From an uncultured Candidatus Saccharibacteria bacterium (GTDB lineage Bacteria > Patescibacteriota > Minisyncoccia > UBA6257 > GWB1-50-10), in assembly GCA_964357525.1 (NCBI GenBank), contig CAYHLH010000001.1, positions 11,719 through 75,718 on the forward strand: DNA of 64,000 bases, written 5' to 3'. The translations under genes were made by a program, and so were the position numbers. The notes beneath the pieces were generated by a model that was not told the origin of the DNA, ran no database searches, and saw only the letters and a program-made list of their open reading frames with translations. This document shows positions 29 through 59,189 of this stretch, piece by piece. Numbering within the stretch: the stretch's first letter is position 1; every line of letters starts with the position of its first letter.

Positions 29-222
29 GCCAATCTTATTTGCGAGCGGAGCGAGCAATCATAAGATTGCGCACCCGCCCAAGTTTTTTGGATTTTGCCG
101 ACTTCTTTATCATTGTTATTTTCATAATGGTATCAATTCTATTTACCCGTATAATTGCAAAAATTTGGGCGGGTAAGGTTTTGTCATCAAAATTTCTTCG
201 AAATTTTGAACAAAGCCCTTAT
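29..222 (-). promoter_or_regulatory. Conserved upstream leader module, copy A (hairpin H0 + long inverted-repeat stem P1 + short uORF) abutting the gene at window start
   Basis: P1 arms GCACCCGCCCAAGTTTTTTGG (71-91) and CAAAAATTTGGGCGGGTAAGG (158-178). H0 hairpin TCAAAATTTCTTCGAAATTTTGA (186-210) followed by CAAAGCCC. uORF MIARSARK* at 36-62 (minus). Homologous to copies B-G. Confidence 0.6.
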
Positions 223-725: not shown

Positions 726-1005
726 GCCGATGTTATTCGCGAACGGAGTGAGCGACCATATTTTCATATGAATAGTTCGCTCGGTCAAAATGAAAACCAA
801 CGCTTTTCATTTCTCCCTCGCTGCTATCCATAACATCGAGCACCCGCCCAAGTTTTTGGGCGCGTGTCGACTCTTTCACCATTGATTGTTTCATTGTTAT
901 ATTCATTGTGCAGGCCTTTGTTGTTTGAAAATTTGGGCGGGTAAGGTTTGGTCAATCAAAAAACCCTCGCCTACGGCTTGGGTTTTTTGAACCAAGCCCT
1001 TAAAA
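726..1005 (-). promoter_or_regulatory. Conserved upstream leader module, copy B (diverged proximal part, long uORF) directly upstream of rpsL
   Basis: P1 arms GAGCACCCGCCCAAGTTTTTGGG (837-860) / GAAAATTTGGGCGGGTAAGG (927-946). H0 TCAAAAAACCC...GGGTTTTTTGA then ACCAAGCCC. uORF of 32 codons at 733-831 starting ATGGATA like other copies and ending TAA-CATCGGC-ATG(rpsL). Confidence 0.6.
733..831 (-). CDS. candidate leader peptide (uORF, 32 aa: [32 protein letters not shown]) upstream of rpsL
   Basis: In-frame ATG...TAA on minus strand; the start context ATGGATA and the stop-to-ATG spacing are shared with uORFs of other module copies. Confidence 0.3.
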
Positions 1006-1091: not shown

Positions 1092-1724
1092 TCAAACCCC
1101 CACAAAAAGGCGGAAGAGGAACTCAACCGCGGGAAAGAGGAAATTGAGCCCCGAAAAGATGAGGACGAGGAGGATGATGAACCCGTAGCGCTCCAAAAAC
1201 GCCTGGGCTGCTTCGGTCCCGCGCGGGAGAAGCCAGAACAGGATCTTGCTGCCGTCCAAGGGAGGGATAGGGATGAGGTTGAAGATCGCGAGGGCGATGT
1301 TGATTATGATGACCGAGGCGATGAGCGGCTCGACGGCGCCGAACCCTCCGCCCGCGCGGTATGCGAGCGCGAACACGAGTGCAAGCACGACGTTCGCCGC
1401 TGGCCCCGCGAGCGCGATCAAAGCCCCTCCCTTCTTAGGGTCTTTCAGATTATAGGGATTGTAGGGAACGGGCTTCGCCCACCCGAACACGACGCCGCCG
1501 GGAATCAAGGATAGGAGGAGCGGGAGCGCCACGGACCCTATGGGATCTATGTGCTTCAACGGGTTCAGGGTCAATCTCCCCGCAAGGCGCGCGGTGTGGT
1601 CGCCGAGCTCGAGTGCCATAAGCCCGTGCGATACCTCGTGCACCACGACGGAAAACAGCAGCACCAACAGCTGAAATACGAAGAAAAATTCCATTTTGTT
1701 CTGAAGCTTGATTATATCACGCAA
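1092..1724 (-). CDS. Site-2 protease family zinc metallopeptidase (M50)
   Basis: HEVSHG HExxH motif and multiple TM segments; the true start may be the internal MEFFF at ~1694. Confidence 0.75.
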   Translation of the reverse strand: MRDIIKLQNKMEFFFVFQLLVLLFSVVVHEVSHGLMALELGDHTARLAGRLTLNPLKHIDPIGSVALPLLLSLIPGGVVFGWAKPVPYNPYNLKDPKKGGALIALAGPAANVVLALVFALAYRAGGGFGAVEPLIASVIIINIALAIFNLIPIPPLDGSKILFWLLPRGTEAAQAFLERYGFIILLVLIFSGLNFLFPAVEFLFRLFVGV

Positions 1725-1748
1725 ATCTCGTATTCTACAGGCACGAAA

Positions 1749-2384
1749 ATGAAGAGGATAATCATCATTCTCATCGCGGTCGTCGTCATTATGGTGGGCT
1801 TTCTGGGCACTCTTTACTACCTCGTCATGCGTTCGGCGCTAGAGGAACCCGAGGCGGGAACGTCCGCGCAAACGGGGATCATGGGACTCTTCTTCAAGAA
1901 TCCCGAAACGGTGAACCCGAGTGCTTTCGTAACCACGACGACGTCCAGCGGCACCACCGTCATACAGATCGGCACAACTACGGTAACGACCGAGGCGCTC
2001 GTTGAGATCCCGACCTCCATCGTGTACATAGCGAGCGAAGCGCCGGAGAAAGTGGTGCTCTCGATCGAGAGCGTCGGCAAGACCGACAAGGGGACGGTGC
2101 TCGTCGCGCTCCGCGTATTCACGCTCGAAGCGTCGCGCGCGACCTCCATTAATCCCGCCGACTTCCTCGCGCTCATCCCTCCCGAGGGGAACGAGACGAG
2201 GCCGGACTTCATCCAGGGCAACTTCACAAACATGGCGCCGGGAGGGAACTACCAGGGGAACGCGATTTTCACGGTGCCCGCAGGGAGGACTTCCATCATC
2301 CTCCAGGTTGGGCGGGGTGAAGGCGTCGTCTTCTTCGAATTCAACTTCGCCAACAAGACATTCCGGCAGGTTGAAATAAGTTAA
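1749..2384 (+). CDS. Hypothetical membrane-anchored protein (N-terminal TM helix, Thr/Val-rich extracellular domain)
   Basis: ORF 1551..2384 trimmed to the internal ATG at 1749 (MKRIIIILIAVVVIMVGFLG...) to avoid overlap with the protease gene. Confidence 0.5.
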   Translation: MKRIIIILIAVVVIMVGFLGTLYYLVMRSALEEPEAGTSAQTGIMGLFFKNPETVNPSAFVTTTTSSGTTVIQIGTTTVTTEALVEIPTSIVYIASEAPEKVVLSIESVGKTDKGTVLVALRVFTLEASRATSINPADFLALIPPEGNETRPDFIQGNFTNMAPGGNYQGNAIFTVPAGRTSIILQVGRGEGVVFFEFNFANKTFRQVEIS

Positions 2385-2597
2385 GATTTTGTATAAAATC
2401 TGAATTCAGTGAGAATTTTATAAACAAAATCTTACCCACCCAAATTTTTAAAAGATAAAACATTATGACGAAACAATTCAATCAATTAAAAGGCAGTCAC
2501 CGCGATATCCCAACAATCGTTCAAAAACTTGGGCGGGTGCTCAATTCTATGGATAAATTTTTATCGCCGACTGACTCAAAAATTTATATATAATCGG
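2385..2597 (+). promoter_or_regulatory. Conserved upstream leader module, copy C (opposite orientation, serving the plus-strand bL28 gene)
   Basis: Reverse complement carries GATTATATATAAATTTTTGAGTC...GATAAAAATTTATCCATAGAATTGAGCACCCGCCCAAGTTTTTG; second P1 arm CTTACCCACCCAAATTTTT at 2431-2450. uORF MDKFLSPTDSKIYI* at 2549-2593 ends 5 nt before the ATG at 2599. Confidence 0.65.
2549..2593 (+). CDS. candidate leader peptide MDKFLSPTDSKIYI (uORF) upstream of rpmB-like gene
   Basis: ATG GAT AAA TTT TTA TCG CCG ACT GAC TCA AAA ATT TAT ATA TAA; conserved in copies D and G. Confidence 0.35.
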   Translation: MDKFLSPTDSKIYI

Positions 2598-2598
2598 C

Positions 2599-2817
2599 AT
2601 GCGCATCTGTTTTTACTGCGGAAAATCGTACAAGGGCGGCGGCACAAGGAAACTCCTTCGCGGCCACTACAACCCGACGAACTTCGGGAAGAAGCGGGCT
2701 AATTTGCAGTGGATGAAGGACGGAAAGACCGGCAAGCGCGTACTCGCGTGCACCTCGTGCATGAGAACGACGATAAAGACGAAAACAAAAAAGGGGAGGA
2801 AGGTCAAAACCCACTGA
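2599..2817 (+). CDS. rpmB: 50S ribosomal protein bL28-like (small Lys-rich zinc-ribbon r-protein)
   Basis: 72 aa; CxxC...CxxC with GHYNPTN..KKRANLQ..RVLACTSCMRTTIK resembling L28 (C.ICG...SH.N..KRR..PNLQ...RV.L.VS..ALRTI.K); identity among small r-proteins not certain. Confidence 0.5.
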   Translation: MRICFYCGKSYKGGGTRKLLRGHYNPTNFGKKRANLQWMKDGKTGKRVLACTSCMRTTIKTKTKKGRKVKTH

Positions 2818-2835
2818 ACAATTCTATGGAATTGT

Positions 2836-3486
2836 TCAGTGATTTTGTAACGGGACGAAGACGAACCCTGGGAATTCCTCCATTTCGAGCTTTCCGAATT
2901 CGGTCTTTTCCATTTTCCACACCGAGAGGCCCAAGGGGATGACCATTCGCCCGCCTCGCGTCGGCTCGCCGCGAGTCGAGGCGGGCCCGCCCGCTTTCAG
3001 CTGTTCCACGAGCGGCTGCGGCAATTCACTTCCGGAGGCGGAGACGAGTATCTTGTCGAACGGGGCCTCGCTGGACAGACCCACTTCCTTCCCCGCCGGC
3101 TCGATGCGCACGTTCTTGAACCCGTACTTGCCGAGATTTGTCTTCCCGAATTCCACGAGTTCGGGGACTATTTCCGTTCCGATTACGCTCCCCTTCTCTC
3201 CTGCGATGCGCGCGAGGAGCGCCGTGGTCCATCCGGAACCGGAACCGACATCCAGGATCTTCTCCCCTTCCTTTGGCTCAAGGAGCTCCAGCATGAACGC
3301 GACGGTGTACGGCTGCGAGATGGTGGCGCCGTATCCTATCGGAAAGGCATTATCTTCATACGCGGCACGCCTGTATGCCTCTGGCATAAAATCGGCGCGG
3401 TCCACCTCAGTAAACGCGCGGACGATAACGGGGTTTTTCAGAACTCCTTTACGCTTAAGATGCTCCACGAGCTCCGCGTTCGCCAT
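2836..3486 (-). CDS. pcm: Protein-L-isoaspartate O-methyltransferase
   Basis: ATISQPYTVAFMLELL...LDVGSGSGWTTALLA motifs. Confidence 0.85.
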   Translation of the reverse strand: MANAELVEHLKRKGVLKNPVIVRAFTEVDRADFMPEAYRRAAYEDNAFPIGYGATISQPYTVAFMLELLEPKEGEKILDVGSGSGWTTALLARIAGEKGSVIGTEIVPELVEFGKTNLGKYGFKNVRIEPAGKEVGLSSEAPFDKILVSASGSELPQPLVEQLKAGGPASTRGEPTRGGRMVIPLGLSVWKMEKTEFGKLEMEEFPGFVFVPLQNH

Positions 3487-3632
3487 TATATTATTTTACA
3501 ACTTATTCAAAATTGAAGCCGGGAATTTCACGTCGCTCCGCTCTTTAAGAACCCACGGTTCTTAACGGATCTCCTCCACGGGAGACCAGCGTGTTCTCCC
3601 GACCCCACTCCTGTCCAATTCCATAACCGGCA

Positions 3633-3665
3633 AATACAAAAGACGGGAAAAATCCTGTCTTTTGT
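3633..3665 (-). terminator. Hairpin terminator downstream of tRNA-Pro
   Basis: GACGGGAAAAATCCTGTC palindrome followed by TTTTGTATTT. Confidence 0.45.
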
Positions 3666-3671
3666 ATTTTG

Positions 3672-3746
3672 TCGGGCTGCCGGGAATTGAACCCGGTCTA
3701 CATGCACCCCATGCATGCGTACTGCCGGTATACTACAGCCCGAGTG
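3672..3746 (-). tRNA. tRNA-Pro (anticodon GGG)
   Basis: Reverse complement folds as a cloverleaf with anticodon loop ATGGGGT and T-arm GGGTTCAATTCCC; coordinates approximate by a few nt. Confidence 0.75.
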
Positions 3747-3810
3747 AAGGAGGGATGCTATCTTTCGAAGAAAGATACAGCCCTAACGCACCAAAATTGT
3801 AGCGAAATAA

Positions 3811-3835
3811 AAAAATATCCGCAATTCGCGGATAT
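3811..3835 (-). terminator. Bidirectional hairpin terminator (ATATCCGCAATTCGCGGATAT) flanked by A/T runs
   Basis: Perfect palindrome downstream of ORF 3887..4267. Confidence 0.45.
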
Positions 3836-3886
3836 TCTAAAAAATGTTTTCAATGGTTACTTCAAGATATAGGAATACTTACGGTG

Positions 3887-4267
3887 TTATTTCACTCCCT
3901 CACCCTCGGCATCAACTTTTCCACCACGAATATGCGTATTGCTGCATGAAGGACACTTTCCTTTATGATCATCCCGTATACGTTCAAACTCGGATCTGTC
4001 GAAATAATAGATTCGTGAACCATCGGGCATTTTCCAATACCAGCATACCGTTGATTCCCTACAATCAGTGACAAACTCAACCTTTTCACCCGCTCTGCGA
4101 ACATCGGTAACTTCAGAAGGTACGAAATTAACGCCGCGGCTCAAATCTTCTGTGTCTGAACGGGGGAATATCTGCCCCTTATCGCCACCACCACCTAAGG
4201 CATTCACTGTAAAACCTAACGCGGAGATTTCATTGATATTTGAATATTTTTCTGCTTTTTTTACCAA
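3887..4267 (-). CDS. Hypothetical protein with C-terminal CPSC zinc-ribbon-like motif
   Basis: 126 aa ORF with a TTG start; AT-rich flanks; no recognisable family. Confidence 0.4.
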   Translation of the reverse strand: MVKKAEKYSNINEISALGFTVNALGGGGDKGQIFPRSDTEDLSRGVNFVPSEVTDVRRAGEKVEFVTDCRESTVCWYWKMPDGSRIYYFDRSEFERIRDDHKGKCPSCSNTHIRGGKVDAEGEGVK

Positions 4268-4367
4268 AACAGAACCCCTTTCGTTTTTATTAAAAATAAA
4301 TGTTATTTAACTAACTAAAAAATACCATATAATATGGTATAAGTCAATAATCAAAAACGGGACCGAA

Positions 4368-5273
4368 CTACACGTGCAGGTACCGGCGGATGGCGATGAC
4401 CGAAGAAAGGATGCCGAGCGCGACGCCGAAGAGCACCTGGTAGAGGAAAAATTTCAGGAAGTTAGCCGAAAAGTACGCACTTAAGGACACTTCGGGTATG
4501 AAATTGGAAACATATGGCGAGATGAACCCGATGATGGGCACCAAGATGAGGAAACTCACGATGGCGCCGATGACGCCGTAGAGGATGCCCTCCACGATGT
4601 AGGGCCCGCGGATGAAGTTGTTCCCCGCCCCCACGAGCCGCATGATGCCGATGGCGTCGCTGTTCGAGAATATGGCGAGCCGGATGGTGTTGAACGTGAT
4701 CATGATGGCGAGGAAGGAGAGGAACGAAGTGAGGATGGCCCCTCCGTTCCTGATGGTGTCGACGAAGGCGATGAGGCGGTCGATGACGAGTTGGTTCTGC
4801 GCATAGGTCACCTTTTCCACCTGTTCGTTGAACGAGGGCTTGTCGAGATAGCTCGCGATCGTCTCATAGTGGCGAGGGTCATTCGCCTTGATGTTCAGGG
4901 ACGCGAGAAGCGGGTTCTCGTCGAGCTGGGAGAGGGTTTCCGTGATGACCGGATCGTCCTTGTGCTGCTCCTGAAATATGCGGAGAGCGTCGTCGCGCGA
5001 GATGTACTCCACCTCTTTCACCTCCGAAAGCCCTTCAAGGGAACGCTTGATGTTCAGGACGGCGTCCTCGGTGACGTTCGTCTTGAAGTACACGCTGATG
5101 TCTATTTTCTCCTGAATGGACTCCACCGCCCCCTTTGCCACGACGTTGAAGACGATGAGGCCCTCGAAAACGATGAGCGCGAGGACCATGATGCTGATTG
5201 TGGATGCGGAAAGCCACCCGTTCCTCATGAAGCTGCTCCATCCGTATTTCACTATGCGAAGAAGTTTTACCAT
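4368..5273 (-). CDS. ftsX: Cell division permease FtsX
   Basis: 4-TM topology with large periplasmic loop, adjacent and co-directional with ftsE. Confidence 0.85.
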   Translation of the reverse strand: MVKLLRIVKYGWSSFMRNGWLSASTISIMVLALIVFEGLIVFNVVAKGAVESIQEKIDISVYFKTNVTEDAVLNIKRSLEGLSEVKEVEYISRDDALRIFQEQHKDDPVITETLSQLDENPLLASLNIKANDPRHYETIASYLDKPSFNEQVEKVTYAQNQLVIDRLIAFVDTIRNGGAILTSFLSFLAIMITFNTIRLAIFSNSDAIGIMRLVGAGNNFIRGPYIVEGILYGVIGAIVSFLILVPIIGFISPYVSNFIPEVSLSAYFSANFLKFFLYQVLFGVALGILSSVIAIRRYLHV

Positions 5274-8246: not shown

Positions 8247-8447
8247 TTAATTTCTGGTGAACGGCAGAAGCCCTAAAATGCGCGCGCGCTTGATGGCGCC
8301 GGCGAGCTGCCTCTGGTGCGAAGCGCACACGCCGGTGTGCCGCGGATCGATGATCTTCGCCTGCGAGGACACGAAACGCCTCAACACCTCGACGTTCTCG
8401 TGATCGATGATCTTGACATTCTGGGAACAAAAAAAGCACTGGCGCAT
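8247..8447 (-). CDS. rpsR: 30S ribosomal protein S18
   Basis: CFFC...IDHENVEVLRRFVSSQAKI.PRHTGVCASHQRQL..AIKRARILGLLPF. Confidence 0.9.
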   Translation of the reverse strand: MRQCFFCSQNVKIIDHENVEVLRRFVSSQAKIIDPRHTGVCASHQRQLAGAIKRARILGLLPFTRN

Positions 8448-8662
8448 GCCGATTATATATAAATTTTCGAGTCCACCGACGATGAAAATTTATCCATAGA
8501 ATCGAGCACCCCGCACATAATATGCCGATTCGACGATGTATAATATTCTATTTTACTCCTGTTGTTCATAAAATTAATTTTAATGAATCGCTTATGTGCA
8601 GGGTTTAGGTTTGGTAATCAAAAATTCTTCGCCCGCGGCTCGAATTTTTGAACCAAGCCCTA
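8448..8662 (-). promoter_or_regulatory. Conserved upstream leader module, copy D (type-2 P1 stem), between ssb stop and rpsR start
   Basis: P1 arms GAGCACCCCGCACATAA (8504-8520) / TTATGTGCAGGGT (8592-8604). H0 TCAAAAATTCTTCGCCCGCGGCTCGAATTTTTGA then ACCAAGCCC. uORF MDKFSSSVDSKIYI* at 8453-8497, stop 5 nt before rpsR ATG. Confidence 0.65.
8453..8497 (-). CDS. candidate leader peptide MDKFSSSVDSKIYI (uORF) upstream of rpsR
   Basis: ATG GAT AAA TTT TCA TCG TCG GTG GAC TCG AAA ATT TAT ATA TAA on the minus strand. Confidence 0.35.
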   Translation of the reverse strand: MDKFSSSVDSKIYI

Positions 8663-27887: not shown

Positions 27888-28322
27888 TCAGATGCCGAGA
27901 TCGCCGAGTTTCTCCGCGATCTCATCCGCCGCGCCTTCGGTCTTCGTTTTGTATGCGTTCCATTCTCCCGCATCCCAGACCTCGAGGCGCGTGCCGACGC
28001 CGATGATGACGGCGTTTTTCGAGAGCCCCGCGAATTTCCGCAAAGGTCCCGGGATCAATATCCTTCCCTGCACGTCGAATTCCACGTCCACCGCGCTGGA
28101 GAGGAGGTGTCTTGAGAATGCCCTCGATAACGACTTCCCTATCGGTAGTCCTGAGAGTTTCTCCTCGACGAATTTTTGCCACTCGCCCTCTCCGAGGACG
28201 AAAAGGCATCTGTCGAATCCCTTCGTGATGATGCCGCCGTGAATGAGCTTCTCGCGGAACTTCGCGGGAATGGCCACCCTGCCCTTAGGGTCAACGGTAT
28301 GTGTGTATTCGCCGAGAAACAT
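27888..28322 (-). CDS. mraZ: Transcriptional regulator MraZ
   Basis: MFLGEYTHTVDPKGRVAIPAKFR duplicated MraZ domain. Confidence 0.9.
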   Translation of the reverse strand: MFLGEYTHTVDPKGRVAIPAKFREKLIHGGIITKGFDRCLFVLGEGEWQKFVEEKLSGLPIGKSLSRAFSRHLLSSAVDVEFDVQGRILIPGPLRKFAGLSKNAVIIGVGTRLEVWDAGEWNAYKTKTEGAADEIAEKLGDLGI

Positions 28323-28500
28323 GGCTCTGTGATCTGAACTCTGAGCGAACGACCATGAGCGAAATGAATTCAGTTATCACGGAGAGCACCCCGCACATAA
28401 CCGATATATTTCGCTCTTCCCACACACAACTCTCAAAACTTGTAAAAACCCCCTTTTGTCGATTGAGAGTGTTATGTGCGGGGTCCGCAGTTTCATAGAC
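28323..28500 (-). promoter_or_regulatory. Conserved upstream leader module, copy E (type-2 P1 stem; degenerate uORF) upstream of mraZ
   Basis: P1 arms GAGCACCCCGCACATAACC (28383-28401) / GTTATGTGCGGGGTCC (28470-28485); proximal segment homologous to copy D but without an intact uORF. Confidence 0.55.
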
Positions 28501-31215: not shown

Positions 31216-31289
31216 CGGTGACCCTCCTTTCCGTTATAAGATTTTAAAATTCTCACCTTCTTTCTACCCCGCCGGACGCGCGGCGTCAA

Positions 31290-31329
31290 CCCGGTAGTAG
31301 AAACTCGATATCGAGTTTCTACTACCGGG
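31290..31329. repeat. 40-nt perfect palindrome CCCGGTAGTAGAAACTCGATATCGAGTTTCTACTACCGGG
   Basis: Arms identical to the terminal inverted repeats of the element at 37619-37760. Confidence 0.8.
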
Positions 31330-31819
31330 TCAATACCTAAAAAAAGGCCCTCGCGGTGAGGAAGGCCTTATTATTTATACGCATGAACCCAAAGGTTCTA
31401 TATGAATACAGGAGGAGAAAACAAAAAGCTACGACCAGCGTAACTTCGAACGGAACGGGCGTCAATCCCGTTAGAGAAACGGGTTTTGAGTCATGCTCAA
31501 GCGCCGGTTCATACCTTTCGGATAAGGTGTAAAAGAAAATATAAGCATAATGGAATTAAAAACCCGCATGACTATTCTCTAACGGGATCGACCCCCAAAC
31601 GAAAAGCCCACGACGGGGCGTATGAGCGCGAAAGAACCCCGATGAAAGATTCCCGACAAAGAATCAAGTGGGTTTCCGCAATTCAGTGGGTTAGAAAATC
31701 GGAGGTAGTACCAATTCTCTGTCCGACCGAAAGATGTAGGAATCCCTTTGAAAAATAATTTAGTTCGGAATCTTTTCTCCAGGGTTCTGTCTGTATTATA
31801 CCACTCGGGGTTTATGTCA

Positions 31820-36303: not shown

Positions 36304-36500
36304 GCGAATGATGTCTAAATTTTCGAGTGCCGCCGTAGCGATGAAAATTTAGCCACAACATTCAGCACCCGCCTAAGTTTTTGAATTTCTATTACGGACT
36401 TTCCCATGTCTATATTATACATCTTCAAAAATTTGGGCGGGTAAGATTCGGTACTCAAAAATCCCTCGCCTTTGGCTCAGATTTTTGAACCGAGCCCTTA
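36304..36500 (-). promoter_or_regulatory. Conserved upstream leader module, copy F
   Basis: P1 arms CAGCACCCGCCTAAGTTTTTG / CAAAAATTTGGGCGGGTAAG; H0 CTCAAAAATCCCTCGCCTTTGGCTCAGATTTTTGA then ACCGAGCCC; possible GTG-initiated uORF (M)AKFSSLRRHSKI* at 36315-36356. Confidence 0.6.
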
Positions 36501-37616: not shown

Positions 37617-37618
37617 GC

Positions 37619-37760
37619 CCGGTAGTAACTCACGCGCTCCATCCCGACCGCGGTCGGGATAGGGTGCGACTGTTCTTGAAAATAATGGAATTGTAACTCA
37701 TGACCTTATCTTTACTCTTTACCTGGAATCGTCACCATACTGCGCGTGACTACTACCGGG
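37619..37760. repeat. ~142-nt element bounded by 19-20 bp inverted repeats CCCGGTAGTAACTCACGCGC / GCGCGTGACTACTACCGGG, in the rpsB 5' region
   Basis: The inverted repeats share the CCCGGTAGTAG core with the 40-nt palindrome at 31290; internal hairpin TCCCGACCGCGGTCGGGA. Confidence 0.6.
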
Positions 37761-37819
37761 CATGTGAATAAAAACAACCTCTGTATGCTACCGAAAACGC
37801 TGCGGAAAGTCAAAGATTT

Positions 37820-37908: not shown

Positions 37909-38958
37909 CTAAATAAACCTCGCCATGAAGAAAAGTATGAGGCCGAGTATGGTCATCACGCCGGAGATTATCCAGAAACGCATGGTCACCTGCGTTTCGG
38001 GCCAGCCGAGCCCCTCGAAGTGGTGGTGGATGGGCGTGGAAAGGAAGAGCTTACGCCCGAGGAGCTTCTTGTGGAGAACCTGGATGATGACGGAGCCCGA
38101 CTCGATGAGGAGGATGAATCCGAAGAATGGGAGGAAAAGGGCCGTGTTCGTGAACATCGCCATGACCCCGAGGGTGATGCCGAGCCCCATCGAACCCGTG
38201 TCCCCCATGAAGAACTTCGCGGGATGCACGTTGTACCAGAGGAACGCCAAAAGCGCCCCCAATATCGCCGCGTTCATCGCCGCGAGGTCGAACCGGTTCA
38301 TGATGAAGGACACGATGGCCATGGCACAGAACGAGAAGAAGAGCACTCCGCCTGAAAGTCCGTCCAGGCCGTCCGTCTCGTTCGCGGAGAACGCCGTCGC
38401 GACCACCACGAACACGAAGAAAAGCATGTACCACGCGCCGAGGTCCACGAGCCCGAGGAACGGAACGTAGATCTCGCTCCAGCCGAGCCGTATGTGGAAC
38501 CACCACGCGCCTATGAGCGACACCAGTGTGTAGAGCGCGAGCTTGTGCTTGATGGTGATGCCGCCGCCCTTGCCGGACCCCTTCCCGATGATGCCCCAGA
38601 AATCGTCGATGAATCCGACAATGGCGCCGAAAGCCAATGCCGCGAGCGGCACATAGGTCTCGGGGCGGGAAACGAAGTTCAGGTATCCGAGAAATCCGTC
38701 GAAGGCGAGGTCTCCAAGGAAAAGTATGACGGCGAGCCCCAACACCGTACCCCATATGATGACGCCGCCCATCGTCGGCGTGTCGAATTTGTGCTTGTGA
38801 TGCTCGTAAAAAACGGGCGCGGTCGCCGCGTCGCGGATGTTCCTCTTCTTCAGCCCGTACTTGAGGAGCGCGCGGTACACGAAGGGCGTGATGCCCAAGG
38901 CCACGATGAACGCGATGGCGAAAACTATGAGCGCGCGTATGCTTTCGAAAACTTCCAT
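37909..38958 (-). CDS. mraY: Phospho-N-acetylmuramoyl-pentapeptide-transferase
   Basis: 10-TM MraY with MGDTGSMGLG motif. Confidence 0.9.
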   Translation of the reverse strand: MEVFESIRALIVFAIAFIVALGITPFVYRALLKYGLKKRNIRDAATAPVFYEHHKHKFDTPTMGGVIIWGTVLGLAVILFLGDLAFDGFLGYLNFVSRPETYVPLAALAFGAIVGFIDDFWGIIGKGSGKGGGITIKHKLALYTLVSLIGAWWFHIRLGWSEIYVPFLGLVDLGAWYMLFFVFVVVATAFSANETDGLDGLSGGVLFFSFCAMAIVSFIMNRFDLAAMNAAILGALLAFLWYNVHPAKFFMGDTGSMGLGITLGVMAMFTNTALFLPFFGFILLIESGSVIIQVLHKKLLGRKLFLSTPIHHHFEGLGWPETQVTMRFWIISGVMTILGLILFFMARFI

Positions 38959-38963
38959 GCCGA

Positions 38964-39008
38964 TTATATATAAATTTTCGAGTCTGCCAACGATGAAAAT
39001 TTATTCAT
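38964..39008 (-). CDS. candidate leader peptide MNKFSSLADSKIYI (uORF) upstream of mraY
   Basis: ATG AAT AAA TTT TCA TCG TTG GCA GAC TCG AAA ATT TAT ATA TAA; stop 5 nt before the mraY ATG. Confidence 0.35.
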   Translation of the reverse strand: MNKFSSLADSKIYI

Positions 39009-39039
39009 AAAATCGAGCACCCGCCTAAATTTTTGAATC

Positions 39040-39297
39040 TTATTTTTCATTGATAGTGTGAGAGAGAATCTTCTTCATATAATTTCTTCCCCATCCGGTC
39101 TTGAAATATTGTTCACGTTGCATGGCATCCTTTTGATTTCTATACAACTCACAATAAATCAGTTCCCATGGCCTCTTGTTTTTCGTTGAATGTACCCTAC
39201 CTTTTTGATGCTCCTCAACCCGCCTCTTTATATCTTGAGAATAGCCGACATATACACTTTTGTCTCTTTTACTCCTCAAAATGTAGATGCCATACAT
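39040..39297 (-). CDS. GIY-YIG nuclease family protein (UPF0213-like, 85 aa)
   Basis: MYGIYILRS...VYVGYSQDIKRRVEEH...KRPWEL; ORF 39040..39333 trimmed to the second Met because the first 12 codons are simply the P1 arm sequence. Confidence 0.75.
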   Translation of the reverse strand: MYGIYILRSKRDKSVYVGYSQDIKRRVEEHQKGRVHSTKNKRPWELIYCELYRNQKDAMQREQYFKTGWGRNYMKKILSHTINEK

Positions 39298-39354
39298 ATT
39301 CAAAAATTTTGGCGGGTAAGGTTTTCTTACCACGCCACGGCGTGGAGAAAGCCC

Positions 39355-40323
39355 TCAAAACTCATACGCCTGTTCCATCCAGGCAAGCACCGACGCGACC
39401 TCTTTCACCCTGTCGGGGCTCCCCAATATGATAACCGCGATGCGGAAATCTTTGAATGCGAGCACCGCGGCGAGGTTCTGGCGCGCCACATCTGACGTGC
39501 CCGTTTTCCCGCCGAGGAACAGCTTGTCCGAGACGAACGGATTGATGTTCGTTTCCGTTCGGAACTCCGTGGTGTTCGTCGGCTGCACGAGATAGTTCAC
39601 AAGTCGCGTCCAGTTCAGGATCTCCGGATGTTTCTCGTATATGTATTCGGTGAGAATGAACATGTCCTCCGCGCTCGTGAGGTTCGTGTCCGCAAGCCCC
39701 GACGCGTCGTTCAGAATCGTCCCTCGCATCCCGAGCTCGCCCGCCTTCTTGTTCAATAACCGGTTCATCTCCGCCTTTCCTCCCGCGAAATCCTCGAACG
39801 CCGCCGCCGCGCGGTTCGAGGAGGTGAGGAGCATTATCTTCAGGAGATCGCCCGAAAGGTACACTTCCCCGCTTTTGAGCCCTCCCGCAACGCCTTCCGC
39901 GAGCATTGCCCGTTCGGTGACCGGCACTTTCCGCTGATTGCCGTACTGTTCAAGGACCACGACGGCCGTGAGAAGCTTTGAGAGCGACGCCGCGGGCCAC
40001 GTCTCGCGCGTGCGGTAGCGGAAGAACGGGAAATCCTCGTCGAGCGACTGGACGAGCACCGCCTGCGCCTCGATGGTGGGGTCCAACACTTCCCATTTCC
40101 GCTCGGGAAGCCGCTTGTTCGAAGGCCTCGTGTTCTGCGAGAGGGCGTCCGAGCCGTACCCGGTCGATGTCGGCGAGCCCGAAACGTCTATCGTGCGAGA
40201 CGTGAAGAGCGCGCCGAAATCCCCTCCGTAAAAGACGAAGAACACTATGCCTCCCGCGACGAGCGCGGTTCCGACGACCGCGAATGCGGCGTTCCCGGTT
40301 TTCTTGAGGATTTCCCTAAGCAT
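39355..40323 (-). CDS. D-alanyl-D-alanine carboxypeptidase (serine peptidase S11)
   Basis: SLSKLLTAVV (SxxK) motif, N-terminal TM. Confidence 0.7.
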   Translation of the reverse strand: MLREILKKTGNAAFAVVGTALVAGGIVFFVFYGGDFGALFTSRTIDVSGSPTSTGYGSDALSQNTRPSNKRLPERKWEVLDPTIEAQAVLVQSLDEDFPFFRYRTRETWPAASLSKLLTAVVVLEQYGNQRKVPVTERAMLAEGVAGGLKSGEVYLSGDLLKIMLLTSSNRAAAAFEDFAGGKAEMNRLLNKKAGELGMRGTILNDASGLADTNLTSAEDMFILTEYIYEKHPEILNWTRLVNYLVQPTNTTEFRTETNINPFVSDKLFLGGKTGTSDVARQNLAAVLAFKDFRIAVIILGSPDRVKEVASVLAWMEQAYEF

Positions 40324-58063: not shown

Positions 58064-58141
58064 CGAATTAATTGCTATTTAACCACAATTTTGTTATTTT
58101 TTCAATTTTTAATTTTCGGACAGGGAATCTCATCCTTCGGT

Positions 58142-58411
58142 CTACTCAGGACTTTCAGCACCGCTCGTTTTTTTTATTAAAGAGAGTTTTTTGTCTCTGC
58201 GCCAGCCTTTGATTTCCTTTTCCCTGCGCCGTGCTTCTACAAGAGTTTTGAACTTCTCTGAATGTGCCAAAGCGACAGGCCGACGGATCTTCGTGTAATG
58301 AGCACCCCATTTTGAGTTGTTGTGCTGTTCTATTCTCCTTTTAAGATTATTCGTACAACCCACGTACAATGATTCGTCGTCGCACCGGAGAATATAAACA
58401 AAATACCCCAC
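58142..58411 (-). CDS. GIY-YIG nuclease family protein (UPF0213-like, 89 aa)
   Basis: MGYFVYILRCDDESLYVGCTNNLKRRIEQH; flanked by repeats that resemble the tRNA-Gln 3' end. Confidence 0.75.
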   Translation of the reverse strand: MGYFVYILRCDDESLYVGCTNNLKRRIEQHNNSKWGAHYTKIRRPVALAHSEKFKTLVEARRREKEIKGWRRDKKLSLIKKTSGAESPE

Positions 58412-58525
58412 AGGGATATTTTATCACTTCGTCATCCTTCGTTTACACTCAGGATTCCTCAGTGCCTTCGTCTTTTCTATATTTAGTGGGTCGCAGACCC
58501 TGAGGAGCACAGGGTGCGACGAAGG

Positions 58526-58700
58526 GCTGCGGGACAGGGAATCGAATCTCTAGGTCTCTGACCGGGACCCCGGTCGCTTCGCGACCTAGGGGCCCCAATT
58601 TTTTGGTTTCCCTAGGTCTCTGACCGGGACCCCGGTCGCTCCGCGACCTAGGGGCAGAGCCATGTGTCCTATCCCTAGGTAAATTTATGCCTTTTCCTGC
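58526..58700 (-). pseudogene. Disrupted tRNA-Gln-like copy interrupted by two 44-nt palindromic elements
   Basis: 3' part GATTCGATTCCCTGTCCCGCAGC and 5' part GGATAGGACACATGGCTCTG match the intact tRNA-Gln; two copies of CCTAGGTCTCTGACCGGGACCCCGGTCGC(T/C)(T/C)CGCGACCTAGGGG lie between them; no acceptor pairing. Confidence 0.5.
58551..58653. repeat. Tandem pair of 44-nt hairpin-rich palindromic elements (third copy at 59029-59074)
   Basis: CCTAGGTC...GACCTAGG outer stem, GACCGGGACCCCGGTC inner palindrome; three copies within 550 nt. Confidence 0.7.
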
Positions 58701-58710
58701 TATCCAAAGC

Positions 58711-58781
58711 TGCGGGACTAGGAATCGAACCTAGATTCCATGGTTCAGAGCCATGTATCCTACCGTTAGATGATCCCGCAG
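58711..58781 (-). tRNA. tRNA-Gln (anticodon CTG)
   Basis: Reverse complement TGCGGGATCATCTAACGGTAGGATACATGGCTCTGAACCATGGAATCTAGGTTCGATTCCTAGTCCCGCAG. Confidence 0.75.
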
Positions 58782-58789
58782 CTTTGGAT

Positions 58790-59025
58790 ACCAATAACTT
58801 TTTAAGCTTACCGCCCCACGGGGTGTACTTCAACGCCCATTCCTTTTTACGAGCTTCAGATAATGATTTAAAGAATTCACTGTATACTAACCGCAAGGGG
58901 CGTCTGAATCTCGTACTTTTGACCTTGCCGCCATTGTGAGTAACAATCCTCTTCTCAAGATTCATACAGGTTCCTGTATAAAAATTTCCATCTTTTTCGC
59001 TTTTCAAAATATAAAGATACGGCAT
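58790..59025 (-). CDS. GIY-YIG nuclease family protein (UPF0213-like, ~78 aa)
   Basis: MPYLYILKSEKDGNFYTGTCMNLEKRIVTHN; ORF 58675..59082 is open through tRNA-Gln, so the 3' end is approximate; start trimmed to MPYLYIL; preceded by the third copy of the 44-nt palindrome. Confidence 0.65.
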
Positions 59026-59189
59026 AAATTTACCGGGACCCCGGTCGCTTCGCGACCTAGGGGCCGTTAGACGATCCCGCAATGGTTTACCTGCGGCAGA
59101 CAGGCATTTTTGATATTAGCGCACTCTATTTTTGAAAACAATCCCGACGTAAGGTCGATACTCCGACTGAAACGTCGGAGGAAATCAAA

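Follow-up and report, generated by a model that had tools for sequence, protein, structure and literature searches.

A 64,000-nt stretch of the genome of an uncultured Candidatus Saccharibacteria bacterium (contig CAYHLH010000001.1 of assembly GCA_964357525.1; hereafter the window) carries, in the spacer upstream of mraY, a small GIY-YIG nuclease gene that forms the loop of a hairpin, P1, whose arms abut its start and stop codons. We consider it probable that the encoded protein is a patescibacterial relative of the Ssn nucleases and that its gene is carried in the loop of the cognate hairpin as a unit resembling an insertion sequence (IS). Because the gene would ride in the loop of its own cognate hairpin, the nuclease gene and the recognition stem would together make up one compact IS-like unit. 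The same nesting recurs in relatives, the arms co-vary with the protein subclade, the gene evolves under purifying selection, the unit is present or absent at orthologous sites and occupies a different locus in a related genome, and insertions of such hairpins are found in open reading frames (ORFs) and in a 23S rRNA gene. The nuclease activity of the family and the mechanism of its mobility are predicted by analogy.

A GIY-YIG gene enclosed by a hairpin stem

The genes of the window lie mainly on the minus strand, and a spacer of 396 nt separates the DD-carboxypeptidase gene (39355-40323) from mraY (37909-38958). A preliminary description of this DNA held that the GIY-YIG gene exactly fills the loop of P1, and this is borne out: the gaps between the gene and the two arms are 0 and 1 nt, and the spacer, folded as single-stranded DNA, forms a hairpin next to the upstream gene (P0), a P1 stem that closes the entire ORF and a nested hairpin in front of mraY (P2), with z = -4.7. 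The arms, 20 nt each and complementary at 19 of 20 positions, are real, although they lie a few bases away from where they had been placed (Table 1). In their repeat form they read CTT-ACCCGCCnAAATTTTTG ... CAAAAAnTTnGGCGGGT-GC and are palindromic. The P0 position is occupied in other copies and at other loci by hairpins that differ in sequence and keep the pairing.

The 85-aa protein matches Pfam PF01541 (GIY-YIG) over residues 1-67 (E=2e-18) and has no second domain; the catalytic-type residues Y5, Y16, R26, H30 and E62 are kept across 18 homologues. The gene is under purifying selection, with dN of 0.10-0.25 at saturated dS and a dN/dS of 0.064 against the homologue at locus L002 of a relative. 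As judged from its sequence, the ORF most likely encodes a functional single-domain GIY-YIG nuclease that belongs to a patescibacterial clade related to Ssn. A scan of the protein against NCBIfam gave sub-threshold matches only, and 42 N-terminal residues align with TIGR01453 (group I intron endonuclease) at 25 bits versus a cut-off of 56. The search of the window against Rfam 15 at gathering score returned only tRNAs, and positions 38900-39400 at E<=10 gave nothing relevant.

Recurrence of the nesting and co-variation of arms and protein

The window derives from a groundwater genome of the Patescibacteria, also called the Candidate Phyla Radiation (CPR): its MraY protein was matched on a Hainich aquifer contig, and the close relatives are metagenome-assembled genomes (MAGs) of Patescibacteria. 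All four close homologues of the GIY-YIG protein (67-84% identity, L001-L004) are nested between the same arms and P0- and P2-type hairpins, in four contexts: a locus resembling a type IV secretion system, the junction of DD-peptidase and mraY, that of mraY and an amidohydrolase gene, and that of L33 and PCMT. A metagenome scan yielded 80 further relatives at 43-66% identity, and bracketing could be evaluated at 81 loci. Under strict criteria (score of at least 10, z of at least 4), an inverted repeat brackets the ORF at 36 of the 81, and arms with a CCCnG core enclosing loops of 241-290 nt are found in about 52. The type of arm co-clusters with the protein subclade, the types being ACCCGCCnAA, ACCCCGTTAGATA, CCCCGTGAAATA, ACCCCGTGAGATA, ACCCTGTTAAATA and CCCGTTAGAGA.

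Alongside the genes, these loci contain empty hairpins of matching class whose loops measure 1-120 nt, and loop lengths are bimodal, falling at either 1-120 or 240-290 nt. The palindromic repeat has further copies in this genome, and copies in other Patescibacteria as well, whose loops are of only 4-90 nt. A genome scan with the 5' arm gave about 20 true matches, all from Patescibacteria and none with the gene; eight of these hairpins have loops of 4-5 nt, several of them GCGAAGC or GCGCAGC.

Probable relationship to the Ssn nucleases

The Ssn family comprises single-domain GIY-YIG proteins of ~94 aa (CDD cd10448) that bind short hairpin repeats (NTS/SRM) and cut adjacent single-stranded DNA site-specifically, but not double-stranded DNA or RNA; repeats usually lie on either side of the gene, an arrangement given as “NTS-ssnA-NTS, identical to IS” (Chenal et al. 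2025, Nat Commun, PMC11893778). Cleavage by SsnA does not require the loop, and both split stems and loop-extended stems are still cut (PMC11893778); this independence of the loop makes a loop of the size of a gene plausible. As a proxy for SsnA we used a GIY-YIG gene of Azospirillum lipoferum that is flanked by SRMs and, like the patescibacterial modules, sits inside an operon junction, between sufB and sufC (plasmid NC_016623, 255.4-256.0 kb; L113). Four exact canonical SRM matches (CGTCATCCCCGCGAAGGCGGGGATCCAG) surround this gene, two per side, and its protein aligns with the profile of our family with an hhalign probability of 97.9% (E=6e-13, 50.3 bits), the best solved structure being the UPF0213 protein 1zg2 (42.5 bits).

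In both systems a small (~85-100 aa) single-domain GIY-YIG protein with intact catalytic residues is encoded between inverted hairpin-forming repeats that also exist as apparently many solo, mostly intergenic copies, and the repeat sequence varies with the protein lineage. GCGAAG-type loops are common to both, the hairpin cores are TTACCCGCC or TCATCCCG here and TCATTCCCGCG in Ssn, and some arm classes (ATTCATCCCGTTAGAG) resemble the left half of the SRM (GTCATCCCCGCG). The differences concern the layout and the hosts: the half-sites described here lie 0-1 nt from the start and stop codons, whereas Ssn genes have complete hairpins of 20-50 nt; the stems are longer (17-20 bp) with an A/T-rich inner half; and the hosts are Patescibacteria. 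The paper on Ssn mentions neither Patescibacteria nor genes inside a hairpin (PMC11893778). Since the gene-in-hairpin layout recurs in dozens of relatives, it appears to be a version of the Ssn/hairpin-repeat system that is compact and prone to insertion.

Insertion of the gene-plus-arms unit

The gene order ScpA-ScpB-DD-peptidase-MraY-S2-EF-Ts is conserved in the relatives compared. DD-peptidase and mraY are 2, 5, 9 and 9 nt apart in four of them (MraY identity to the window 76, 75, 81 and 50%, respectively), one further relative has an unrelated spacer of 148 nt, and a gene-bearing module is found at this junction only in the window and in L002. As the orthologous junctions are tight (2-9 nt), the module with its gene is an insertion. 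At the junction of tsf and the next gene the window has a class-A module of 194 nt; three relatives have gaps of 4, 12 and 51 nt, and a fourth has a 180-nt module with different P1 arms. In the MAG GCA_041643275.1 a GIY-YIG gene 84% identical to that of the window lies between the same arms beside a TraC/VirB4-like gene, while the mraY junction of that genome is empty. No target-site duplication was seen at the junctions compared with relatives. The preliminary description had proposed that an element with terminal inverted repeats (TIRs) invaded a conserved leader and then decayed. An insertion is supported by the tight orthologous junctions and the other locus in GCA_041643275.1, but the ancient leader is not, nor is the decay: the whole P0-P1-P2 module is itself an insertion that fills the space from the stop codon of one gene to the start codon of the following one, and what relatives lack at mraY is this entire module and not merely the content of a loop.

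Hairpins of a second class (class B) that carry a GIY-YIG gene interrupt protein genes (L046, L048, L050, L076 and L078, at about 2480-2780, and L056, at 2484-2752), and their in-silico removal restores long ORFs. The insertion point in genes for four-helix-bundle proteins, similar to those of 23S rRNA intervening sequences (IVS), is one codon position (...SNIA/../GF...), and one class-B hairpin lies within an Asn-rich repeat immediately ahead of a reverse transcriptase, at a locus resembling a diversity-generating retroelement. The divergence of the host genes is mostly synonymous; dS is 0.43-0.86 for the class-B elements and 1.2-1.8 for the host genes, values that come from small samples. 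An empty class-A P1 with a 38-nt loop is located in the 23S rRNA gene of a Yanofskybacteria MAG (L009, 2265-2334; Rfam LSU match 1193-4732), antisense to the rRNA. The behaviour of the gene-plus-arms unit as an insertion-prone, IS-like element is thus supported by comparison of these sequences.

Empty hairpins and the question of gene remnants

The arm motif occurs in 11 half-sites of the window against 2.6 expected, a number reached in 0 of 100 shuffles. There are five class-A and two variant hairpins in these 64 kb, of which one is occupied by the gene. The short-loop copies had been taken for internal-deletion derivatives of the gene-bearing form, as in miniature inverted-repeat transposable elements (MITEs), and a motif in the loops of two of them (copies A and B) for the retained 3' end of the gene. 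This motif, TTTCATTG(A/T)TA, is present in c1, in c2 and at the gene end (TATCATTGTTA at 108, TTTCATTGTTA at 889 and TTTCATTGATA at 39045), with an identical copy at an unrelated site, 4228; the four matches compare with 1.27 expected, and 4 of 100 shuffles reach that number. It has another explanation than a remnant, because its ATG opens a small upstream ORF: TTTCATTGATA is the start of this ORF, and the gene strand reads ATCAATGAAA there, with an in-frame ATG.

Compared in register with the 3' end of the gene, the 3' ends of the loops gave p = 0.9 (copy A) and 0.72 (copy B). Smith-Waterman alignment of each loop with the gene gave p = 0.37, 0.41, 0.59, 0.016 and 0.63 against dinucleotide shuffles, where the 0.016, for c4, is marginal and precedes correction for five tests, and an nhmmer profile built from five GIY-YIG genes had no match in any empty loop at E<=10. 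The alignment of loops and gene that the preliminary description had called for thus reveals no significant similarity, and a retained 3' end finds no support in these results. A weak 5' hint comes from c5, whose loop (36386-36423) starts with GAAGATGTATAATATAGACAT: of its first 24 bases, 15 are identical in register to the gene start, compared with a maximum of 13/24 in 450 off-register windows, although three of the 15 matches are an extension of the stem and the upstream ORF favours an ATG here in its own right. A similarly weak 5' resemblance is seen in L009, L014 and L017; the loop of the L009 hairpin begins with GGATATGCGTCC, like the start of a GIY-YIG gene.

A MITE-like decay series is not supported: loop lengths are bimodal and the shortest forms are perfect hairpins with loops of 4-5 nt, often GCGAAGC. 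The empty copies are better described as solo repeat copies comparable to NTS or to repetitive extragenic palindromic (REP) sequences than as decayed genes. It is accordingly improbable, in our view, that the unit is a TIR transposon with the GIY-YIG protein as transposase and the short-loop copies as its MITE derivatives. Such a transposon would account for 20-bp inverted termini around a single gene, for identical arms in gene-bearing and short copies, for presence or absence at orthologous sites and the other locus in a related MAG, and for the 5' resemblances in c5 and the three loci just named, but not for the absence of target-site duplications, for loops without detectable similarity to the gene and without intermediates, for arms that are conserved around unrelated loops, or for the lack of near-identical copies that would mark a recent burst. 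GIY-YIG enzymes, moreover, hydrolyse DNA and are not known to carry out strand transfer.

The surrounding module and its possible role in RNA

The modules lie flush between genes (stop codon-GGGCT… …TTCGC-ATG), and their orientation is always that of the flanking genes, including c3, which is on the opposite strand just 1.5 kb from c2. In front of unrelated genes, namely mraY and two small Cys-rich ORFs, P2 with the ATG that follows it is 86-93% identical (window 8445-8511, 38956-39022 and 2535-2614; in another MAG, L001 3238-3300), and the class of the P1 arms differs between P0/P2 pairs that are alike, which suggests recombination or cassette exchange among modules. One P0/P2 frame can hold a P1 of class A, of class B or of the GCACATAA class, so that P1 behaves like a cassette separable from its frame; a search for P0-P2 frames devoid of P1 found none.

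The upstream ORF of the mraY copy (Table 1) reads through the 3' arm (…QK[LF][GR]RVL…) and then P2, and it ends 5 nt ahead of the mraY ATG. In other copies, with upstream ORFs at 2470-2598 on the plus strand and at 8451-8567 and 36318-36425 on the minus strand, the stop lies 5-17 nt ahead of the downstream ATG. Of 14 ATGs in empty class-A loops, 12 are in the frame of the upstream ORF, versus 1 and 1 in the other two frames. A conserved small protein was considered and rejected: among c3, c4, c6 and L001, ~11/12 differences, read by eye, are nonsynonymous, so the peptide is not conserved, and only the frame and its ATGs are kept. It seems that translation, not a protein, is maintained. No Shine-Dalgarno sequence was found beside the module for either the GIY-YIG gene or the downstream genes, and the small ORF, running from the loop to just before the next ATG, probably relays translation and may thereby offset the insertion. 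A sigma-70 promoter in P2 that would give leaderless mRNAs (TATATAAT 4 nt before the ATG) was also considered and rejected for its inconsistent spacing and its absence from other P2 types.

These features raise the possibility that P0-P1-P2 is an intercistronic RNA element for processing, stability or translational coupling that merely tolerates an ORF in its loop, as endonuclease ORFs are tolerated in peripheral loops of group I introns; the arms would form an RNase III-type stem, and cleavage of the stem would release a nearly leaderless GIY-YIG mRNA. The constant orientation of the module, the P0 and P2 pairings kept with different sequences, the maintained upstream ORF, the lack of Shine-Dalgarno sequences and a stem of 17-20 bp abutting start and stop codons all fit such an element. 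There are, however, P1 copies that lack P0 and P2, and one that lies antisense in a 23S rRNA gene; different orders of Patescibacteria share the arm sequence of P1 and not only its pairing, and this sequence co-varies with the protein. In 28 hairpins oriented by the CTT flank the non-Watson-Crick positions are 27 of the A.C type against 5 G.T, so wobble pairing is available only to the complement of the mRNA. This makes the mRNA-sense strand fold less well and speaks against a role of P1 in sense RNA, although the A.C count is dominated by one conserved position that may instead be a recognition feature. There is also no Rfam match, and it would remain unexplained why the cargo of the loop is always this nuclease family. 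We regard a purely RNA-level element as doubtful; an RNA role of the module and a DNA role of P1 are compatible and not exclusive.

Proposed mechanism and remaining alternatives

On the favoured reading, a Ssn-related nuclease carried in its cognate hairpin, the protein would, by analogy with SsnA, bind the stem formed by its arms in DNA that is single-stranded during replication, transformation or transcription and would nick nearby, the content of the loop being irrelevant to recognition. Nicking could then help the hairpin, whether or not it holds the gene, to be copied or retained, or could modulate the recombination of incoming DNA. In this lineage the P1 hairpin is embedded between P0 and P2, in an inserted module that directly adjoins the stop codon before it and the start codon after it.

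Several points weigh against this reading. The scores of the Azospirillum protein and of 1zg2 are suggestive, not decisive, of a place in cd10448 as opposed to UPF0213 (cd10456), and the B. subtilis protein YazA was matched as well, with 42% identity. The published SRM pattern, HGTCWYN(0-2)YYVSBRHN(0-5)WNVSBRGN(0-2)RNCYNB, which finds the four SRMs at the Azospirillum gene as a positive control, matches no copy of P1 and has one unrelated match in the window versus 0.7 in shuffles. Bona fide Ssn genes, both in Azospirillum and in the published cases (PMC11893778), have a complete small hairpin on each side and are not nested in one, and ~25-30 of the 81 relatives are without bracketing arms by the method used. 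Window and L002 diverge in the GIY-YIG gene (78% identity) much as they do in the neighbouring genes (MraY 82.5%, DD-peptidase 74%), so that at the mraY site the gene behaves as a long-term resident and not as a recently mobile one. The orientation of the modules with the genes, the compensatory changes in P0 and P2 and the maintained upstream ORF point to roles of the module at the RNA level. Lastly, the nuclease activity, strand preference and cleavage site of this clade are predictions drawn from Ssn.

A bolder proposal, to which we lend only tentative credence, is that a hairpin with a GIY-YIG gene in its loop represents a new class of autonomous mobile element based on single-stranded DNA in Patescibacteria. 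The nuclease would nick at the stem made by its own arms, and the unit or the bare hairpin would be copied into tight operon junctions, ORFs and tRNA or rRNA genes, where the surrounding module would neutralize the insertion through its own stop and start context and the relay upstream ORF that restores coupling. If true, this would also explain non-intron insertions with GIY-YIG genes in rRNA genes of the CPR.

Least likely is the suggestion that a free-standing homing endonuclease uses the leader as its homing site, making double-strand breaks in empty-loop hairpins or modules that are repaired from the gene-bearing copy: sister elements do share a codon position in diverged four-helix-bundle genes and are younger than their hosts, a gene that is always in the loop leaves the stem, its putative target, intact, and GIY-YIG ORFs have been reported in non-intron insertions of CPR rRNA genes (PMC11270868), but that same study placed them outside homing-type spread, the protein is a catalytic domain of just 85 aa without a DNA-binding domain, its characterized single-domain relatives do not cut double-stranded DNA (PMC11893778), only one of seven hairpins that share a cell with the nuclease is occupied, and relatives are without the whole module at mraY and do not have an empty loop.

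Comparison with other systems and significance

Besides Ssn, the closest parallels are REP/BIME repeats with their genes for RAYTs (REP-associated tyrosine transposases), and the IS200/IS605 elements, in which a single gene is likewise flanked by inverted copies of a palindromic repeat thought to be its target and, as we infer here, a hairpin is recognized in single-stranded DNA. As with REP and RAYT, the repeats are scattered between genes, where they form mosaics with other hairpins, and make no target-site duplication; the difference lies in the enzyme, a GIY-YIG hydrolase and not a Y1/HUH transposase, and in the gene being placed in the loop of one palindrome and not between two REPs. GIY-YIG homing endonucleases (I-TevI, Seg) and ORFs in the loops of group I introns share with the unit the catalytic domain and an ORF in a loop whose stem still forms, and reoccupation of the same site in diverged host genes is seen in the class-B sister elements. 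Those proteins, however, are of about 245 aa and carry a DNA-binding domain, and there is no ribozyme or intron structure here. MITEs such as the Correia elements of Neisseria, and the Rickettsia palindromic elements, are similarly short, have inverted termini, lie between genes or in frame within them, and affect the expression of neighbouring genes, as the modules described here may do; they differ in that our hairpins have no TA or other target duplication, form no family of near-identical copies and carry a Ssn-type nuclease in place of a transposase.

The first description of Ssn nucleases dates only from 2025, and what they do in the cell and how their repeats arose remain to be explained; at the loci described here gene and repeat are coupled more tightly than reported, and the nesting, the co-variation and the insertion polymorphisms lend weight to the view that genes of the Ssn type act, or once acted, as selfish mobile units. 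A survey of insertions in CPR rRNA genes noted GIY-YIG ORFs in non-intron insertions and did not describe hairpins (J Bacteriol 2024, PMC11270868); nesting of the gene in a hairpin may explain these ORFs. At several essential genes (rpsL-rpsG, ssb with the ORF that follows, tsf, mraY), hairpin modules of 200-400 nt have entered tight operon junctions that were probably coupled in translation, and the features of the modules suggest how insertions at such junctions are tolerated. Since each nested gene names its own probable recognition stem, the loci provide dozens of predicted enzyme/site pairs for single-stranded-DNA tools.

Other features of the window

Table 1. Positions of the nuclease gene, its hairpins and related hairpin copies in the window.
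Feature	Position	Strand	Remarks
GIY-YIG nuclease gene	39040-39297	-	Intact in the ORF list, 85 aa, single domain; protein begins MYGIYILRSKRDKSVYVGYS; forms the P1 loop
P1 5' arm	39298-39317	-	ACCCGCCAAAATTTTTGAAT in gene sense; 0 nt to the GIY-YIG ATG
P1 3' arm	39019-39038	-	ATTCAAAAATTTAGGCGGGT in gene sense; begins 1 nt past the GIY-YIG stop codon
P0 hairpin	39320-39354	-	From the DNA fold; abuts the TGA that ends the DD-carboxypeptidase gene upstream
P2 nested hairpin	38959-39018	-	0 nt before the mraY ATG; 93% identical to P2 at 8445-8511
Upstream ORF	38964-39050	-	28 codons; peptide MKNKIQKFRRVLDFMNKFSSLADSKIYI, then stop; starts within the last GIY-YIG codons
Minimal P1 hairpin, example			AAACCTTACCCGCCAAAATTTTTGCGAAGCAAAAACTTAGGCGGGTGCTC, with 15-nt flanks
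Hairpin c1	73-174	-	Empty, class A; 70-nt loop; between rpsL and next gene
Hairpin c2	842-942	-	Empty, class A; 69-nt loop; upstream of rpsL
Hairpin c3	2434-2538	+	Empty, class A; 73-nt loop; has P2; downstream ATG on plus strand
Hairpin c4	8509-8603	-	Arms CCCTGCACATAA / TTATGTGCGGGG; P0 and P2 frame as elsewhere; between ssb and a small unannotated Cys-rich ORF (MRQCFFC...)
Hairpin c5	36367-36442	-	Empty, class A; 44-nt loop starting GAAGATGTAT; between tsf and next gene
Seventh hairpin	28389-28483	-	GCACATAA arm class (CCCCGCACATAA / TTATGTGCGGGG); then a P2-like hairpin and the ATG at 28322

GCGAAGC or GCGCAGC recurs at hairpin tips, namely in minimal P1 loops (L011, L028, L029 and L015), at the P0 apices of the window, in the repeat at 58547-58655 (D4) and in the Azospirillum SRM of L113, and the tips of P2 have the complement GCTTCGC on the sense strand. 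GCGAAGC and GCGCAGC are a classic, very stable DNA mini-hairpin motif, so these tips are consistent with a function in single-stranded DNA without being proof of it.

Hairpin families beyond these, with an (A/G)CCCG core, comprise a perfect 42-nt palindrome at 31289-31330 (ACCCGGTAGTAGAAACTCGAT/ATCGAG...), a pair of ~20-nt arms (GCCCGGTAGTAGTCACGCGC) at 37617-37761 that enclose ~105 nt and end flush with the rpsB ATG, and a ATCCCGTTAGAGA-type inverted repeat from 31467 to about 31590 that resembles the arms of L053, L058 and L105.

The minus strand at 58130-59081 holds two more small GIY-YIG genes, each with flanking repeats of its own. The first (start 59025) lies between a duplicate of the 5' fragment of tRNA-Gln (59064-59081) with a 47-nt hairpin repeat and the intact tRNA-Gln gene (58709-58780). 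Downstream, in a second tRNA-Gln-like gene, the anticodon loop is interrupted by two tandem copies of the 47-nt repeat (58547-58593 and 58609-58655). The other GIY-YIG gene (58142-58411) is accompanied by direct repeats, TCCTGAGT...CGAAGGATGA, at 58432-58454 and 58130-58151.

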